Source: an uncultured Candidatus Saccharibacteria bacterium
Lineage (GTDB): Bacteria > Patescibacteriota > Minisyncoccia > Phycocordibacterales > JACOZG01
Length of the DNA: 64,000 bases
Assembly (NCBI GenBank): GCA_964651115.1
Contig: CAZYXJ010000002.1
Coordinates: 48,338 to 112,337, forward strand
Direction of reading: 5' to 3'
This document shows, piece by piece, positions 19,137 through 54,325 of the stretch. Below the pieces are notes generated by a model that was not told the origin of the DNA, did no database searches, and saw nothing but the letters and a program-made list of their open reading frames with translations. A program made the position numbers and the translations under genes. Numbering within the stretch: the first letter of the stretch is position 1; every line of letters starts with the position of its first letter.

Positions 19137-19163
19137 CTCCCCGCATGTCGCGGGGAGTTTTTG
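19137..19163 (+). terminator. Rho-independent terminator
   Basis: The hairpin CTCCCCGCATGTCGCGGGGAG is followed by TTTTT. Confidence 0.5.
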
Positions 19164-48060: not shown

Positions 48061-48477
48061 ATGGAGAAGGGAGAACTTAAGGCCAGGCTCGAGAGAGCTC
48101 TTCGTCGCACGGAGAAAGTGCCCCGGCAGCTCGTGGTCATGTTTCCGGATCATCCTCAACTTAACGAAATGATGAGGGTGTTGTCTGGCGACGAGCAGAA
48201 GGAATTTCTGCAGCTCTTTGTGAGAGCTTGGCGGCTGGGGGCGAGGGAGGTATTTGTGGAAATCTTGCCCTGGCTCAATAGCCACAAGTTCAAGTGGAGC
48301 ATGGTAGAGGCTTCCGGTAACGAGCTCCACTTCCATTCCTGCGCTGACGACGGCTTGGTCGTCTGTGAGTGTTCACTAAGTTCGTCGAGTTCTTTGGCGG
48401 GGCTCGACGCTCGGGTTCCTCTTAGGAAGACCCTTTTCTGGGTGGCGGGTCGCTCCCAAGACCTACCCATTTTCTAG
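48061..48477 (+). CDS. Hypothetical protein (138 aa), foreign-looking codon usage
   Basis: It has a strong RBS (AAAGGAGGGAGAGCAATGG). Codon usage is rich in CTC/AGG/AGA, unlike the core genes. No family was recognised. Confidence 0.4.
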   Translation: MEKGELKARLERALRRTEKVPRQLVVMFPDHPQLNEMMRVLSGDEQKEFLQLFVRAWRLGAREVFVEILPWLNSHKFKWSMVEASGNELHFHSCADDGLVVCECSLSSSSSLAGLDARVPLRKTLFWVAGRSQDLPIF

Positions 48478-48794: not shown

Positions 48795-48868
48795 GGGCCT
48801 GTAGTTTCAATGGTAAAACATCGGTCTCCAAAACCGAGGTTCTCGGTTCGAATCCGAGCGGGCCCGCC
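48795..48868 (+). tRNA. tRNA-Trp (anticodon CCA)
   Basis: It folds with acceptor GGGCCTG/CGGGCCC, anticodon loop CTCCAAA on stem TCGGT/ACCGA and T-arm CTCGGTTCGAATCCGAG. Confidence 0.8.
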
Positions 48869-49031
48869 CCAAATATCTGTTATTGGCAGATCTGAGTGCC
48901 TTGGGGCACTTGTTTGTTGAAAACGATCAGATGGCATCTACTCAACATGTAAATACTGAGCAGATGTCATGCCCATGTTGGTAGCATCTCCTTGCAAAAA
49001 AGTACACCGCGGCTTATACTCATTTATACCT

Positions 49032-49667
49032 ATGCTTGATCACCTGAACGAGAACGACAAGAAGGCCTACGCCCTAATCCGCAACCGTCTCGTGCACGGC
49101 ATGGAGGCCCCCACCCTCAGGGAGATAAATGAGGTGACCGGGAAAGCTTCGCCGCGGTCGGCCGTGCTGGCGCTTGAGCGCCTTGAGCGCGCCGGGCTTA
49201 TCCGCCGCGCCGGAAGAAAGATCCGCCTGACCAGACCGAGCCTCGCATCGAACGCCTCGGTATCGACCGTGAATGTTCCGCTCGTCGGCAGCATCGCGGC
49301 TGGCGCACCGATCCTCGCAGAGGAGAACGTCGAGGCGGTGATTCCGGTTTCGACCGCGCTCGCTCGGCCGGGATCGAAGTACTTCCTGCTCCGCGTTTCC
49401 GGAACGTCGATGAACGAAGCAAAGATTGATGGTTCGAAGATAGAGGGCGGCAGCATCGTGCTCGTGCGCCAGCAGAATTCCGCTGACGACGGACAGGTGG
49501 TTGTCGCGCTCATCAACGACGAAGCAACGGTGAAGATACTCGAACGCAAGAACGGCGTCGTCATCCTCCGCCCGAAGTCGTCTGACCAGCATTCGCCGAT
49601 CGTATTAACAGATAACTGCGCTATTCAGGGCGTGGTGGTGGGAGTCCTGCCGCCCGGCCTGCTCTAA
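49032..49667 (+). CDS. lexA: LexA-like S24-family transcriptional repressor (island-borne)
   Basis: An N-terminal wHTH is followed by an S24 peptidase domain with GSIAAGAP (cleavage-site region), VSGTSM (catalytic Ser) and KIL (catalytic Lys). The start was moved to the ATG at 49032. The ORF-track start is 48969. Confidence 0.7.
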   Translation: MLDHLNENDKKAYALIRNRLVHGMEAPTLREINEVTGKASPRSAVLALERLERAGLIRRAGRKIRLTRPSLASNASVSTVNVPLVGSIAAGAPILAEENVEAVIPVSTALARPGSKYFLLRVSGTSMNEAKIDGSKIEGGSIVLVRQQNSADDGQVVVALINDEATVKILERKNGVVILRPKSSDQHSPIVLTDNCAIQGVVVGVLPPGLL

Positions 49668-49671
49668 ACAT

Positions 49672-49899
49672 ATGGCAAAGAACATCCACACCGTATTCAA
49701 CTCCGACAAGCACCGCTGGGAGAACAAGTCCGAGGGAAGCGCGAAGCCCCTCTCGTGGCACCGCACCAAGGATAACGCGGAAGACCGCGCCCAGGACATC
49801 GCGGAGAACAAGAAGGTCGAGCATTTTATCCATGGTAAAGACGGAAAGATCCAGGAGCGCAACAGCTACGGGAACGATCCATTCCCGCCTCGCGGCTAA
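49672..49899 (+). CDS. DUF2188 domain protein
   Basis: The W.HRTKDNAEDRAQDIAENKKVEHFIHGKDGKIQE pattern is typical of DUF2188. It sits 5 nt after lexA. Confidence 0.5.
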   Translation: MAKNIHTVFNSDKHRWENKSEGSAKPLSWHRTKDNAEDRAQDIAENKKVEHFIHGKDGKIQERNSYGNDPFPPRG

Positions 49900-49904
49900 C
49901 ACCC

Positions 49905-50327
49905 ATGGAATCGAAATTGAAACACCTTGAATTCATTCAGGACGCCATCAAACGGATGGCGGGCAACTCATTCCTGCTCAGGGGGTGGAGTATCACCTTG
50001 GTGATTGCGATCTTCACTCTTGCCAGCCAGACCTACCGGCCGATCTACGTTTGGATCGCCCTTTTTATAACGGTGGTGTTCTGGCTTCTCGACTCGTACT
50101 ACCTCCGTCAGGAACGCCGCTTCCGCTGCCTCTACGAGATAGTCCGGGTGAAAGACCCTGGGAGCATCGACTTCTCGATGTCGCTCCCGAAGAAACACTG
50201 CAGCAACTGCAGCTGGTTCTCGGCAGCCAGATCCCCCATCTTTACCGTGTTCTACGGATTAATAACCATGATCTTGATCGCGATCCTGCTCGGGATCTAC
50301 CTCAATATCTCAATAACCCTAAAATAA
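49905..50327 (+). CDS. Small 2-3 TM membrane protein (hypothetical)
   Basis: A 140 aa ORF has hydrophobic helices GWSITLVIAIFTLA, IYVWIALFITVVFWLL and FTVFYGLITMILIAILLGIYL. It is tightly packed in the cassette. Confidence 0.45.
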   Translation: MESKLKHLEFIQDAIKRMAGNSFLLRGWSITLVIAIFTLASQTYRPIYVWIALFITVVFWLLDSYYLRQERRFRCLYEIVRVKDPGSIDFSMSLPKKHCSNCSWFSAARSPIFTVFYGLITMILIAILLGIYLNISITLK

Positions 50328-50330
50328 TTT

Positions 50331-50975
50331 ATGGCCCGAAAAATATTCTTCAGTTTCCATTATGAGCGCGATGCTTGGCGAGCCGGCCAGGTTCGCAACA
50401 GCGACTTGCTCCCTAACGAGGATGAACGCGGATTCATCGACGCAGCGGCATGGGAGGAAATAAAGCGCAAAGGCGATGCGGCGATTCAGAACTGGATCAA
50501 CGAGCAGCTTGAAGGCACCTCGGTCACAGTCGTTCTAATTGGAGCAGAAACCTCGCAACGCCCGTGGGTTGATTACGAAATCCGCACCAGCTGGGAGCGA
50601 GGCAATGCCATCATCGGCCTCTACATCCACGGCGTGAAAGATCAGGAGAGCAAGACTGACACGAAGGGCGCAAATCCTCTCGACGGCATCTATCTCGCTG
50701 ACGGGCAGCCACTCTCAAGCGCATGCAAGACTTATGACTGGGTTCTCAACGACGGGCGCAACAATCTCGGCGGCTGGGCAGATCTCGCTGCAAAGGAACG
50801 CGCAGAGTACAAGGGCGAAACTAAGCTCAAGGTCGGAGCGGTAAAGGGCTTGGTGCCGCCTCCAACCCGCCCGACAACTCCGGGACTTATTAATCCGACC
50901 ATGCCACGAACCGCGCCCAACACAGGCTTCGTGCCTCATTCTCCGCATTCGGACTATGCTGACGGAGAGCGATAA
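50331..50975 (+). CDS. TIR-like domain protein (ThsB-like / DUF1863-type)
   Basis: The N-terminus MARKIFFSFHYERDAWRAGQVRN, then GTSVTVVLIGAETSQRPWVDYEIRTSWERGNAIIGLYIHG, matches my recollection of the conserved blocks of the MTH538/ThsB TIR-like family. A Pro-rich C-terminal tail follows. Confidence 0.6.
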   Translation: MARKIFFSFHYERDAWRAGQVRNSDLLPNEDERGFIDAAAWEEIKRKGDAAIQNWINEQLEGTSVTVVLIGAETSQRPWVDYEIRTSWERGNAIIGLYIHGVKDQESKTDTKGANPLDGIYLADGQPLSSACKTYDWVLNDGRNNLGGWADLAAKERAEYKGETKLKVGAVKGLVPPPTRPTTPGLINPTMPRTAPNTGFVPHSPHSDYADGER

Positions 50976-51660
50976 GCAGTGGCTGGCGGAAAACTATCCG
51001 AATCTTTCGGTCGAATCAGATAACCGGGTTTTTGGCGAGGTGCCGTTCGTTGCGACCTACAACGCTGAGACTGGACGGTTTTTGCAGATTACTCCTGACG
51101 TCGTAGACGGCGTGGGAGGATTGCGACTGTCCGGAACATTTTGTATCGCCATAGCAGAGCGAACTACGACGCCTAACTCGCGCCTGCCGGCGCTCACCGT
51201 CGAAGGAGTTGATACGCTGCCGGATCGCCACTTCAACCAGTCTGACCTCAGCGCCTGCATGTGCAATCCTCTCGAGGAAGACGAATATCTAGAGCCTGCG
51301 TTCGATTTTCAGAGATACTTCAAGGAGTTGGTGATCCCGTTTCTTTACGGCCAGCTGTGCTATTCACAAGAGACGCGATGGCCTTGGTTCGACTACGCAC
51401 ATGGTGGCGTAGGGACAATTGAGGCGTTCTCCAAAAATCCCACACCAGCCAAAGCGGAGGAATGTATCGGAATCATCTCGCGCGAAATCCGTCTGTGGCC
51501 GCTAGTTAAACGGTTGCTGCTACAGACGGGTGACATAAAGGGACACGCTCCATGCCTGTGTCCGAAGCGCGATCATTTACGGCGATGCCATCCTGTAGCG
51601 CTTACAGGTTTGAGGCTTCTAAGGGACGCGGTGAAAACGCACAAGATCCAGCTCCCGTAA
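50956..51660 (+). CDS. Hypothetical Cys-rich protein, translationally coupled to the TIR-like gene (candidate effector/sensor partner)
   Basis: A 234 aa ORF overlaps the TIR gene by 20 nt. Its Cys/His clusters (CMCNP, CYSQ, HAPCLCPKRDHLRRCHP) suggest metal binding. No family was recognised. Confidence 0.4.
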   Translation: MLTESDKQWLAENYPNLSVESDNRVFGEVPFVATYNAETGRFLQITPDVVDGVGGLRLSGTFCIAIAERTTTPNSRLPALTVEGVDTLPDRHFNQSDLSACMCNPLEEDEYLEPAFDFQRYFKELVIPFLYGQLCYSQETRWPWFDYAHGGVGTIEAFSKNPTPAKAEECIGIISREIRLWPLVKRLLLQTGDIKGHAPCLCPKRDHLRRCHPVALTGLRLLRDAVKTHKIQLP

Positions 51661-51710
51661 AAGTGACACATGAATGTCCCGTTTCAGTGTCACTTTTGTA
51701 ACTTTTCAAA
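51661..51710 (+). terminator. Rho-independent terminator ending the cassette
   Basis: The 10-bp stem AAAGTGACAC...GTGTCACTTT is followed by TGTAACTTTTCAAAAAA. Confidence 0.55.
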
Positions 51711-51830
51711 AAACCAGCTAGCGACCCGGGTGCCTCGGCAAACCCCAGGTGGATGCGCTAGAATACCCTTGTAAACACTCACCTCACGGGTACTAATCCC
51801 GAATGGCCCGCCAAGAAGTGTTAAATTTTA

Positions 51831-51873
51831 AAAAAGATTTCCCCCAGGCAGTTATCTGCGCTGGGGGATGGGG
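51831..51873 (-). terminator. Repeat copy A: hairpin terminator abutting the stop of the 51875-52450 gene
   Basis: On the minus strand the sequence reads CCCCATCCCCCAGCGCAGATAACTGCCTGGGGG followed by AAATCTTTTTT. It is near-identical to copy B at 52537-52587. Confidence 0.5.
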
Positions 51874-51874
51874 C

Positions 51875-52450
51875 TTATGGATGGTCGCGGAGGGAGTTGA
51901 GAAAGGCGGTCATTTCATTCATCGTTCTTTGTTGGAAGTCTTTTGTTCCGGTCAAGTTGATTACCTCTTCGGGAAGCTCGTGCCAACTTTCGGCTCCAGC
52001 ATCGCAGAGGGTAATAATGTGATCAAAAATCTCAAAATTCCCCACGGCCGAGCAGGTTTCTATTCCTGCCCGGGTAAGTCCTTGCCACCGAGGGCGACCC
52101 ACGATCACTGTTAGATTTGGGAACTTTTGACGGTTCGTCGAATTTTGTATCAGTGCCCTAAGCCTTTCTGCTTCCATAAAAGCGTTTTTAGCAGTCCACT
52201 GAGATTCCACTTCATCCACTTCAGCTTTAGCCACAACAAGCCTAGCTGGGGCGAGCTGGATAAAGGGGAAGTATTTCCGCCAATTTTTTGACTCCTGGTC
52301 CGTTTCTTCGTGAGTTACATAACGGCAATTTTTGATGTGGAATCCGTGTTGGCAGAGGGGGGTGAGCAGATCAATTAGGGGTTTGCTAAATCCTTTTTCC
52401 CTCAGCCATTTTTGGCTCGCTTTCTCGGGCAGAAGCGCCTTTGTGTTCAT
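51875..52450 (-). CDS. Hypothetical protein, paralog A (191 aa)
   Basis: It shares a W(K/R)(H/K)(Y/F)FPFI.L block and the N-terminal pattern with the 52588-53121 product. Its lower GC and AAA/AGG codons look foreign. Confidence 0.4.
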   Translation of the reverse strand: MNTKALLPEKASQKWLREKGFSKPLIDLLTPLCQHGFHIKNCRYVTHEETDQESKNWRKYFPFIQLAPARLVVAKAEVDEVESQWTAKNAFMEAERLRALIQNSTNRQKFPNLTVIVGRPRWQGLTRAGIETCSAVGNFEIFDHIITLCDAGAESWHELPEEVINLTGTKDFQQRTMNEMTAFLNSLRDHP

Positions 52451-52536
52451 TTCAATGTTCTCCTTGGGTAAGGTTTGGAATTTTGCTCCTGGCTTCTAAA
52501 CTATTCTTTTAAAAACATTTGTCAATTTTATTTTTT

Positions 52537-52587
52537 TAAAAAAGATTTCCCCCAGAGCAGTTTTCTGCGCTGGGGGATGGGGGGGGG
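52537..52587 (-). terminator. Repeat copy B: hairpin terminator abutting the stop of the 52588-53121 gene
   Basis: The core is the same as copy A (AAAAAGATTTCCCCCAGAGCAGTTTTCTGCGCTGGGGGATGGGG) with an extended G-run. Confidence 0.5.
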
Positions 52588-53121
52588 TTACTTGGTCGGG
52601 AGATTGTCCATGAGCCACTTGCCGAAGGCCACCAATTCTTTACGGCCCCGCTCTTGGAATCTTTTCCGTTTGGTTGGATTGTTATATTCGCGCGGAATTT
52701 TGGCCACCCAGGGTCCGCCCCGGTCACAGAGGGTCAGGTACCAGGCCAGATGTTCTGGAGAAGGTGTTGGCCGTTGACCGTAGATTTTTCCTCGGTGAAC
52801 CTCAAGATCCTTTTTGAATTTGTGGTTAAAGCGGTCCACCAGGTCTGACAGCCGATGGAACTGTCTTTCGTCATTGTCGTCGATGCGTGGCAGTGAGGTG
52901 AAGGTTATGACCGACCCTCGATATGTACCCTCGACTGGCTCGTTGGTTGTCAGGGTTATGAAAGGGAAATGTTTCCAACGTGCGCCCAGCACCGTAAATC
53001 GATGGTAGAAAAGAGCTTCCACCGCATCCCTTAGTGGGTGAGTGGAGCCCATTTTTTGCAACAGGGGGTTTTGGGGCAGATAGCATTTCATCCTTTCGAT
53101 GAAAAGTTCTTGAGGAGACAA
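52588..53121 (-). CDS. Hypothetical protein, paralog B (177 aa)
   Basis: See paralog A. It is divergent, but the shared blocks and the duplicated 3' hairpin indicate a tandem duplication. Confidence 0.4.
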   Translation of the reverse strand: MSPQELFIERMKCYLPQNPLLQKMGSTHPLRDAVEALFYHRFTVLGARWKHFPFITLTTNEPVEGTYRGSVITFTSLPRIDDNDERQFHRLSDLVDRFNHKFKKDLEVHRGKIYGQRPTPSPEHLAWYLTLCDRGGPWVAKIPREYNNPTKRKRFQERGRKELVAFGKWLMDNLPTK

Positions 53122-53232
53122 GTTTATTCCCTTTCAGTAAGAGTTTGATGGTTCAGTTCTGGTTTTTAAATTACTACTTATTAAAATAATGTCAAGTGCC
53201 GGCTGGGGTGAGGCTTTGGTATACTACACTCC

Positions 53233-53916
53233 ATGGCAACTACCGAAGTAAAAAAATTATGGGCCATTATGGCTCTCGTTTTGTTGGCGATCGTCGCCTT
53301 ATTGATTGTGGCGGTAACCTCGGGCAATCGACGGGGGCCCTCTATTTTGGAGCCCCTCACTCTTAGTCAGCCGGTAGTGGCTGGTGAGTGGACGGCCGGT
53401 CTGGCCTCAAGTTCGGTGGCGGTGGTTGAGTACAGCGACTTCCAGTGTCCGGCCTGTGCCACTTATGCTCCGGTGGTTAAGCAGTTGATTGCGGATTATG
53501 GTGATCGAATTTCGGTTACTTACCGCCATTTCCCACTCGCCATTCATCCCAACGCGACCGCGGCGGCGGCGGCGAGTGAGGCGGCCGGGTTGCAGGGCAA
53601 GTTTTGGGAAATGGCCGACGTCTTGTTTGAACGTCAGGCGGACTGGTCCGCCACGCGCGCGCCCGAAGAACTTTTCCTTTCTTATGCCCAGACTTTGGGT
53701 CTAAGCGTCGAGCGTTTTGCGGCCGATCTTAATTCCACCGCGGTCAAGCAAGCGGTGGCTGATGATCTGGCTTCGGCTAACGCCACCGGTCTTAGTCATA
53801 CCCCAACCTTCTTTATTAACGGCCAAGAAATCGATAATCCAAAATCTTATGACGAATTTTCTGCCTTGGCGGAAGCGGCCCTTGGCTCTACCAGCGCCAC
53901 GACGACTGCCCGATAG
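53233..53916 (+). CDS. DsbA-family thiol:disulfide oxidoreductase (membrane-anchored)
   Basis: An N-terminal TM helix is followed by a thioredoxin fold with CPAC (SDFQCPACATYAPVVKQL). Confidence 0.7.
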   Translation: MATTEVKKLWAIMALVLLAIVALLIVAVTSGNRRGPSILEPLTLSQPVVAGEWTAGLASSSVAVVEYSDFQCPACATYAPVVKQLIADYGDRISVTYRHFPLAIHPNATAAAAASEAAGLQGKFWEMADVLFERQADWSATRAPEELFLSYAQTLGLSVERFAADLNSTAVKQAVADDLASANATGLSHTPTFFINGQEIDNPKSYDEFSALAEAALGSTSATTTAR

Positions 53917-53947
53917 GCGCCCGTTGATCCTAACTCTTGTTTTGGCG

Positions 53948-54325
53948 ATGATCGGTTTTATTGATGCCGCCTATTTGGCGGTCTATCATTTTCTCGGTGA
54001 GGTGGTCCCCTGTGCTTTGACGAGTGGCTGTGAGGCCGTTACGACGAGTCGTTTTGCCACCATCGGTCCGGTACCGGTGGCGATCCTGGGAGTGATTTAT
54101 TATGGTTTGATTTTGTTTCTTGGGGCTCATCTTTTGCACTCACGATCTCGGGCCGTGGCTTCGTGGCTGGCGCTGGTCACCGCTCTTGGTTTTGCGTTCT
54201 CGCTCTACCTAATTTTCTTGCAGGCGACGATCATTAATGCTTTTTGTTTTTATTGTTTGGTCTCCGCGACTGTAAGCATTTGTTTGTTTGTGGTGTCGTT
54301 TTTCTTAAAACGCGCTACACTGTAG
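53948..54325 (+). CDS. Vitamin K epoxide reductase (VKOR) family protein
   Basis: A CxxC appears in the first loop (VPCALTSGCEAV) and a TxxxSRxA-like segment is present. A C-terminal CFYC lies in a TM helix. The start may instead be the TTG at 53924. The ORF-track start at 53717 overlaps dsbA and was rejected. Confidence 0.55.
   Translation: MIGFIDAAYLAVYHFLGEVVPCALTSGCEAVTTSRFATIGPVPVAILGVIYYGLILFLGAHLLHSRSRAVASWLALVTALGFAFSLYLIFLQATIINAFCFYCLVSATVSICLFVVSFFLKRATL

Follow-up and report, generated by a model that had tools for sequence, protein, structure and literature searches.

Deeply divergent homologous alleles that occupy one chromosomal position between near-identical stretches of flanking regulatory DNA are known from hypervariable loci such as the Staphylococcus agr hypervariable region, the Bacillus comQXP pherotypes and the fungal mating-type idiomorphs. 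In polymorphic-toxin systems, divergent immunity genes are found in tandem arrays, for example in the SUKH/Imm families and among orphan immunity genes. Here, a locus is described whose allelic pattern resembles both kinds of system and whose protein family is itself new to the libraries searched. It is located in a 64,000-nt stretch of DNA from an uncultured Candidatus Saccharibacteria bacterium (contig CAZYXJ010000002.1; the whole stretch is termed the window below) and comprises two minus-strand genes in tandem, P1 (51875..52450) and P2 (52588..53121), each followed by a hairpin element of ~48 nt. With the agr, comQXP and mating-type loci it shares the near-identical flanks around divergent alleles at one position; it differs from them in that a single cytoplasmic protein is encoded, accompanied by neither a receptor nor a peptide gene as partner, and in that two types stand in tandem. 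The P proteins resemble those of SUKH/Imm arrays in being small and cytoplasmic, in lacking an invariant catalytic set, in forming divergent tandem paralogs and in evolving fast, but they match no Imm or SUKH model of Pfam, and each gene has its own putative promoter and terminator-like element. On balance, and with a confidence slightly better than even, an account of duplicated transcription units with an exchangeable coding allele and homogenised hairpins is favoured.

Three short metagenomic contigs (765–1229 nt) that carry further family members were used as comparison loci. Contig L003 encodes P0003, the ortholog of P2 (65% identical), and contigs L004 and L005 encode P0004 (172 aa (amino acids)), the closest relative of P1.

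The first-pass annotation of the window had described two mutually diverged minus-strand open reading frames (ORFs), and both were present as given. P1 encodes an orphan protein of 191 aa (type A) and has an ATG start with a strong AAGGAG ribosome-binding site; P2 encodes an orphan protein of 177 aa (type B) and has a TTG start. Pairwise alignment with BLASTP gave significant similarity (25% aa identity over 177 columns, E value 7e-8), and a codon-aware alignment gave 28% aa identity. P1 and P2 are true paralogs. Common to both are a block of the general form (W)..FPFI.L (NWRKYFPFIQL in P1, RWKHFPFITL in P2), a TLCD(A/R)G block and a C-terminal helix with the pattern F..R...E...F...L. The common motifs were seen across all four family members. 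The first of these blocks had been proposed before as W(R/K)(K/H)(Y/F)FPFI.L; the block is indeed shared, and the pattern holds once a one-residue gap is allowed. Synonymous sites are saturated between P1 and P2, so that the ratio of nonsynonymous to synonymous substitution rates (dN/dS) is undefined for this pair. For P2 and P0003, dN/dS was 0.34, which shows that the P genes are real; they are under moderately relaxed purifying selection. The neighbouring dsbA fragment gave 0.03. The NCBI database model of P2 (P0002, 167 aa) begins at an internal ATG (region 53091–53121). Since the L003 ortholog has ATA in place of this ATG and keeps the 10 upstream codons, the P2 start is most likely the TTG at 53121, giving 177 aa.

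Upstream of P2, a promoter-like site was read from the sequence at 53168..53195 on the minus strand (TTGACA at 53195–53190, 16-nt spacer, TAATTT at 53173–53168). It is treated as putative because a consensus promoter scan did not list this TTGACA-16-TAATTT site. The corresponding site of P1 lies at 52498..52525 on the minus strand (TTGACA at 52525–52520, 16-nt spacer, TAGTTT at 52503–52498), and its -35 box begins 9 nt past the end of the second hairpin element. From the -35 box to the start codon, P1 spans 78 nt and P2 spans 77 nt. The 5' untranslated region (5'UTR) of P2 (53122..53167, minus strand) contains an AAGGGA ribosome-binding site, is homologous to the P1 5'UTR and is nearly invariant across the related loci (conserved sequence CCATCAAACTCTTACTGAAAGG). 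Alignment of promoter plus 5'UTR of P1 and P2 gave 51/80 identical positions (~64%) and a score of 18, compared with -5.6 ± 4.4 for shuffled sequences (0/3000 as high). Because these regions align over equal lengths and far above shuffles, the duplicated unit is, as read from the sequence, the entire ~0.7-kb transcription unit of promoter, 5'UTR, ORF and hairpin. It had previously been taken as gene plus terminator, which was borne out, with promoter and 5'UTR also included.

Hairpin copy 1, behind P1, covers 51826..51873 on the minus strand (stem 51840–51868; U6 run as plus-strand A's at 51830–51835). Copy 2, behind P2, covers 52535..52582 on the same strand (stem 52548–52577; U6 run as plus-strand A's at 52538–52543). 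The coding strand of the element reads CCCCATCCCCCAGCGCAGA(T/A)AACTGC(-/T)CTGGGGGAAATCTTTTTTAAAA. The two copies are spaced by 709 nt and are 96% identical, differing by one loop substitution (AUAA vs AAAA) and one extra U opposite a bulged C. A near-identical element abutting each stop codon had been reported in the first pass and was confirmed; the '(G/A)(C/G)' double substitution given with it is really a single indel. A single nucleotide separates copy 1 from the P1 stop codon, 5 nt (a G run) separate copy 2 from that of P2, and the stems begin 7 nt (P1) and 11 nt (P2) past the stop codons. Only these two copies were found in the 64 kb, with ~0–0.03 expected by chance. As minus-strand RNA, both were folded into a 12-pair hairpin (-22.7 and -23.2 kcal/mol, z ~-5, 0/200 shuffles as stable). 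The U6 run begins 4–5 nt after the stem, beyond a spacer AAUC; the hairpin followed by a T-tract that had been noted originally was recovered, with the tract not directly at the stem. An Rfam search at E≤10 over 51500–53300 returned noise only. Besides folding in both copies, the repeat is present in related loci, where copy 1 is the positional ortholog of the single hairpin in L003, L004 and L005.

In the related contigs, the order is divergent dsbA-like gene, promoter/5'UTR, P gene, hairpin and opposite-strand tryptophan transfer RNA gene (tRNA-Trp). They carry a single P gene, and the window carries two in tandem. The flanks of L003, L004 and L005 are 94–96% identical upstream and 95–100% identical downstream. 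Between those flanks, P0003 and P0004 have 24% aa identity and are not alignable as nucleotides; the similarity is lost from the start codon onwards and regained at the stop codon. Because such divergent ORFs sit between near-identical flanks, the alleles appear to have been swapped by recombination between conserved flanks, or else to be old allelic types that were long maintained. L004 and L005, which stem from independent samples, show 100% identity over ~620 nt of ORF and hairpin and 11 mismatches in the 68 nt upstream, a pattern that would fit a recombination breakpoint located ~30 nt ahead of the start codon.

The dsbA–P2 intergenic region (53122–53232), with promoter and 5'UTR, is 91–95% identical between the window and L003, L004 and L005; for the adjoining dsbA coding sequence, identity falls to 77% and synonymous sites are saturated. 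Given this difference, the regulatory flank is either under strong constraint or itself exchanged. Conservation of the intergenic region seems to go far beyond what a pair of promoters would require, and the region has no Rfam match.

The hairpin of the related contigs reads CCCCUGGCGCG-AAACAU-CGCGCCAGGGG, followed by AAUCUGUUUUUU. It is 67–69% identical to either window copy, as compared with 75–76% between the coding DNA of P2 and P0003. Between the window and L003/L005, 4/12 stem pairs were changed on both sides yet still paired. With an orthologous hairpin of such low identity and compensatory stem changes, the hairpin sequence is not slow-evolving; selection acts on the structure, while the sequence drifts at about the background rate. 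This contradicts the earlier view that the coding parts diverge much faster than the structured 3' element. Within the window, P1 and P2 show saturation at synonymous sites and 64% identity between their promoters, whereas the hairpins are 96% identical. As copies that old should differ more, the near-identity most likely reflects gene conversion, which is preferred, or recent recombination. If so, near-identical 3' hairpins behind diverged paralogs can report gene conversion and not constraint, and similar scans should be read with that in mind.

According to the favoured account, P1 and P2 would have arisen by tandem duplication of the ~0.7-kb transcription unit between the dsbA-like gene and tRNA-Trp. 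Each copy would be independently transcribed from a sigma-70-type promoter and would carry a GC-rich hairpin with U-run at its 3' end. The hairpin would terminate transcription or stabilise the 3' end of the messenger RNA (mRNA); its structure, not its sequence, is under selection. The coding region would represent an exchangeable allele, either replaced via homologous recombination in the conserved flanks or belonging to old types that were maintained. Gene conversion, or else a recent recombination event with the hairpin as its anchor, would have made the hairpins of the window alike, and the hairpins, together with promoter and UTR, would serve as homology arms. Of this account, the paralogy, the copying of the full unit, the conserved hairpin structure, the replacement of alleles at the orthologous locus and the rarity of the family are taken as shown, whereas terminator activity, gene conversion and a conflict or recognition role under balancing selection are inferred.

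Several observations weigh against this account. A strict terminator scan called neither hairpin. In our own scan of the window, the U-run distance was 4 for the P1 and P2 hairpins and 0 for other strong compact hairpins (examples with the T-run directly at the stem are found at 19158, 19442, 28023, 36285, 37337, 39701 and 48738); with a U-run 4–5 nt from the stem, unlike that of the other strong terminators, efficient intrinsic termination is not assured. The covariation in the stem comes from only two independent lineages, so that each compensatory pair is a single event. The proposed allele replacement rests on three metagenome contigs of 765–1229 nt. Gene conversion and a recent acquisition of the P1 unit, as probable sources of the hairpin near-identity, are not separable on these data. 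No window of the P2/P0003 comparison had dN/dS > 1. AlphaFold2 models of the proteins from 3- and 4-sequence alignments reached predicted local distance difference test (pLDDT) values of 53 and 43, and a Foldseek search against PDB and BFVD gave no match below E 0.02, with template modelling (TM) scores ≤0.41.

With intrinsic terminators, the element shares a GC-rich 12-pair stem-loop 1–14 nt past the stop codon, a U6 run on the coding strand and compensatory changes. It differs from them in having AAUC (window) or AAUCUG (L003, L004 and L005) between stem and U-run. Of the hallmarks of an intrinsic terminator, a stable stem-loop and covariation were thus found, but not a U-tract within 0–2 nt of the stem. 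The terminator label of the first pass agrees with position, stability and U-run and not with the canonical form. Most likely, the hairpin acts as an intrinsic terminator of somewhat atypical form or else stabilises the 3' end of the mRNA.

Among the alternatives, recent acquisition survives best. The P1 unit would have been acquired like a cassette from another strain or locus and inserted beside P2 with the hairpin as homology anchor. One hairpin would then have been copied from the other at insertion, and an old duplication with gene conversion would be unneeded. Alleles clearly move between backgrounds at the P locus, and the repeats bracket exactly one unit with their spacing of 709 nt. 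P1 is also nearer to P0004, which occupies the single slot of L004 and L005, than to P2 (32% vs 28% aa identity); P1 and P0004 have the same LRDxP end and 3' ends that are alignable as nucleotides. However, an allele from the same slot should carry the ultra-conserved P2-type promoter that precedes every other allele, and the promoter/UTR of P1 is only ~64% identical to it. No donor sequence is known. Taken together, recent acquisition is regarded as unlikely, though less so than the other alternatives.

Alternatively, the primary sequence of the element might be conserved as a specific binding or recombination site, either attC-like or recognised by a protein or RNA, and the element would then be more than a terminator. 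The tail AAUCU before the U-run and the C-run/U/C-run motif 5' of the stem are conserved across lineages, the U-run lies at an unusual distance for a terminator, and a repeated gene with a structured 3' element superficially recalls integron cassettes, in which an ORF is likewise followed by a conserved imperfect hairpin (attC). The stem, however, differs between lineages by compensatory changes, so that only structure is constrained there. Neither a GTTRRRY/RYYYAAC core nor an extrahelical-base architecture was found, and no integrase or recombinase gene is present within ~8 kb on either side (44–60.8 kb). Unlike integron cassettes, both P genes are preceded by a promoter-like site, and no more than two units are present. 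A conserved binding or recombination site is accordingly judged very improbable, and an integron cassette proper was rejected, as the R''/L''-L'/R' architecture, the GTTRRRY core and a recombinase in 44–60.8 kb are all missing. Least credible of all is a small mobile or dispersed repeat of the repetitive extragenic palindromic (REP) or miniature inverted-repeat transposable element (MITE) kind that landed separately behind both genes: the copies are near-identical in diverged surroundings, but no third copy occurs in the 64 kb, no terminal inverted repeats or target duplications exist beyond the stem, and the hairpin of L003, L004 and L005 points to vertical descent, since it has the same position, tRNA-Trp spacing and tail with compensatory changes. 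That the hairpin contains an uptake-signal sequence was rejected, as only two copies are present.

The protein family was searched for at two levels. A word-indexed search of 5.8 billion clusters matched P1 itself, P2 itself and P0003 only. One more real member, P0004 (E 1.3e-8), emerged when 1.84 billion representatives were searched exhaustively with a profile; a further match, P0005, was rejected as a low-complexity repeat protein. A profile search with the four sequences revealed no further members, and no other paralog was found in the 64-kb window. Only four sequence types of the family were thus found among ~15 billion proteins, with P2 and P0003 forming type B and P1 and P0004 forming type A. 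None of the four members matched a family in Pfam, NCBIfam, PHROGs or PADLOC. In Pfam, nothing beyond noise was found (E≥0.13), and no Imm*, SUKH or SMI1_KNR4 model was matched; in PADLOC-DB 2.0, 0 families were matched at E≤10 by any of the four. A family-profile search of PDB sequences gave 0 matches at E≤10, tblastn against phage records gave nothing meaningful, a search for related loci in genome, metagenome and viral collections added none, and exact scans of genome and metagenome contigs with a 22-mer of the conserved 5'UTR gave none. The P family is an orphan, new to all libraries searched. Weak structural matches to a HIT-family fold were rejected because of the poor model and the lack of an HxHxH motif. 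Reading the TLCDxG block as a caspase-like QACxG motif was also rejected, as no His is conserved.

Downstream of P1, the locus adjoins an island in tRNA-Trp. The intact tRNA-Trp (48795–48868) has a GCCC end, does not encode the CCA and borders on unrelated sequence. At 51788..51812 on the plus strand lies a 25-nt remnant of a tRNA-Trp 3' end (GGTACTAATCCCGAATGGCCCGCCA), which has the GCCA end seen in L003 and marks the ancestral junction of tRNA-Trp and hairpin. It is colinear with, and has the same 28-nt spacing to hairpin 1 as, the intact tRNA-Trp in L003 and L005. Because of the intact tRNA-Trp at one end and the remnant at the other, the ~2.9-kb stretch in between (48869..51787, plus strand) is identified as an island that was inserted into tRNA-Trp. 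L003 and L005 lack it, their tRNA-Trp lying directly next to the hairpin, and no integrase is left in the window. The island contains a LexA/S24 gene, a DUF2188 gene (PDC-S16), PDC-M50A, a ThsB-TIR gene (PDC-M50B) and an E2-like gene. The last three form a module of overlapping genes (49905–51660; recurring core 49904–51636), in which PDC-M50A is a membrane protein of 140 aa, PDC-M50B a TIR protein of the ThsB type and the E2-like protein 234 aa long. The core is found again, with 78% nucleotide identity across 1736 nt, in unrelated contigs from metagenomes (L006–L011). Its neighbours there are a LexA-like gene, a large serine recombinase, DUF3644, a type ISP restriction enzyme and a PIF1-like helicase. 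In PADLOC, PDC-M50 comprises just two genes, and the E2-like gene may be a third component.

With tRNA-gene defence islands, the P locus has in common that it adjoins a tRNA-Trp site carrying the ThsB-TIR/PDC-M50/E2-like module; it differs in that the P paralogs lie outside the island, occur without it in L003 and L005 and have no PADLOC match. A check of the neighbourhood for defence genes such as TIR, proposed in the first pass, led to a separate tRNA-Trp insertion that is absent from related loci. Because P1 and P2 are outside the island and related loci exist without it, the TIR neighbourhood is no evidence for P function, and a functional link between the P genes and their Thoeris-like neighbours was rejected. 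The island shows only that the region is recombination-prone and variable.

Further features were seen around the locus. Between the terminator of the E2-like gene and the tRNA-Trp remnant, a strong minus-strand hairpin (51717–51760, ~-21 kcal/mol) is followed by CTGGTTTTTT; it might mark the end of the island or serve as an antisense terminator. An orphan ORF of 138 aa (48061–48477) with no Pfam match lies in the interval from tRNA-Tyr to the L33 gene (47969–48568). L003 has tRNA-Thr(ggt) in its place, so that this is another variable spot in the tRNA cluster. On the other side of the P genes, a DsbA-like thioredoxin-fold protein adjoins a VKOR-family protein (53233–54325), flanking the variable locus. 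The two may form a disulfide-bond formation pair.

For the P proteins, a role in defence or immunity is plausible. The first-pass annotation had compared the pattern with diversifying defence or immunity gene families. The variability is real, with alleles of 24% identity between flanks of 94–98% identity; an assignment to defence did not follow, as matches in PADLOC, Pfam and PHROGs are lacking and the TIR island is separate. No toxin gene or remnant of a toxin domain was found near the P genes, whose neighbours in the window are the dsbA-like and VKOR genes, tRNA-Trp and the TIR island. A toxin–antitoxin pair was rejected, as P1 and P2 are homologous and have separate promoter and terminator signals, and the relatives carry one gene. 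The target of a diversity-generating retroelement was likewise rejected: the ORF bodies contain no repeat, no reverse transcriptase is among the neighbours, and the divergence spans the whole ORF. A factor of immunity or exclusion would agree with the single-gene layout, the cytoplasmic proteins, the lack of an invariant catalytic set and the presence of two stacked types in one genome. That the P protein acts in a conflict or recognition process favouring rare alleles is suggested only tentatively. Slightly more doubtful is the fuller proposal, in which the P family would be an unrecognised conflict or recognition gene (immunity, exclusion or kin discrimination) with ancient idiomorphs under balancing selection, and in which promoter/5'UTR and hairpin would double as homology arms for swapping and stacking.

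If the favoured account is true, the P locus would be a compact plug-in locus, with fixed regulatory flanks around a freely exchangeable allele of a family without known relatives, and a new orphan family would join the rapidly diversifying bacterial genes. As the family is very rare, the immediate impact would be modest. The function of the P protein could reveal a new mechanism of immunity or recognition in a poorly studied lineage.

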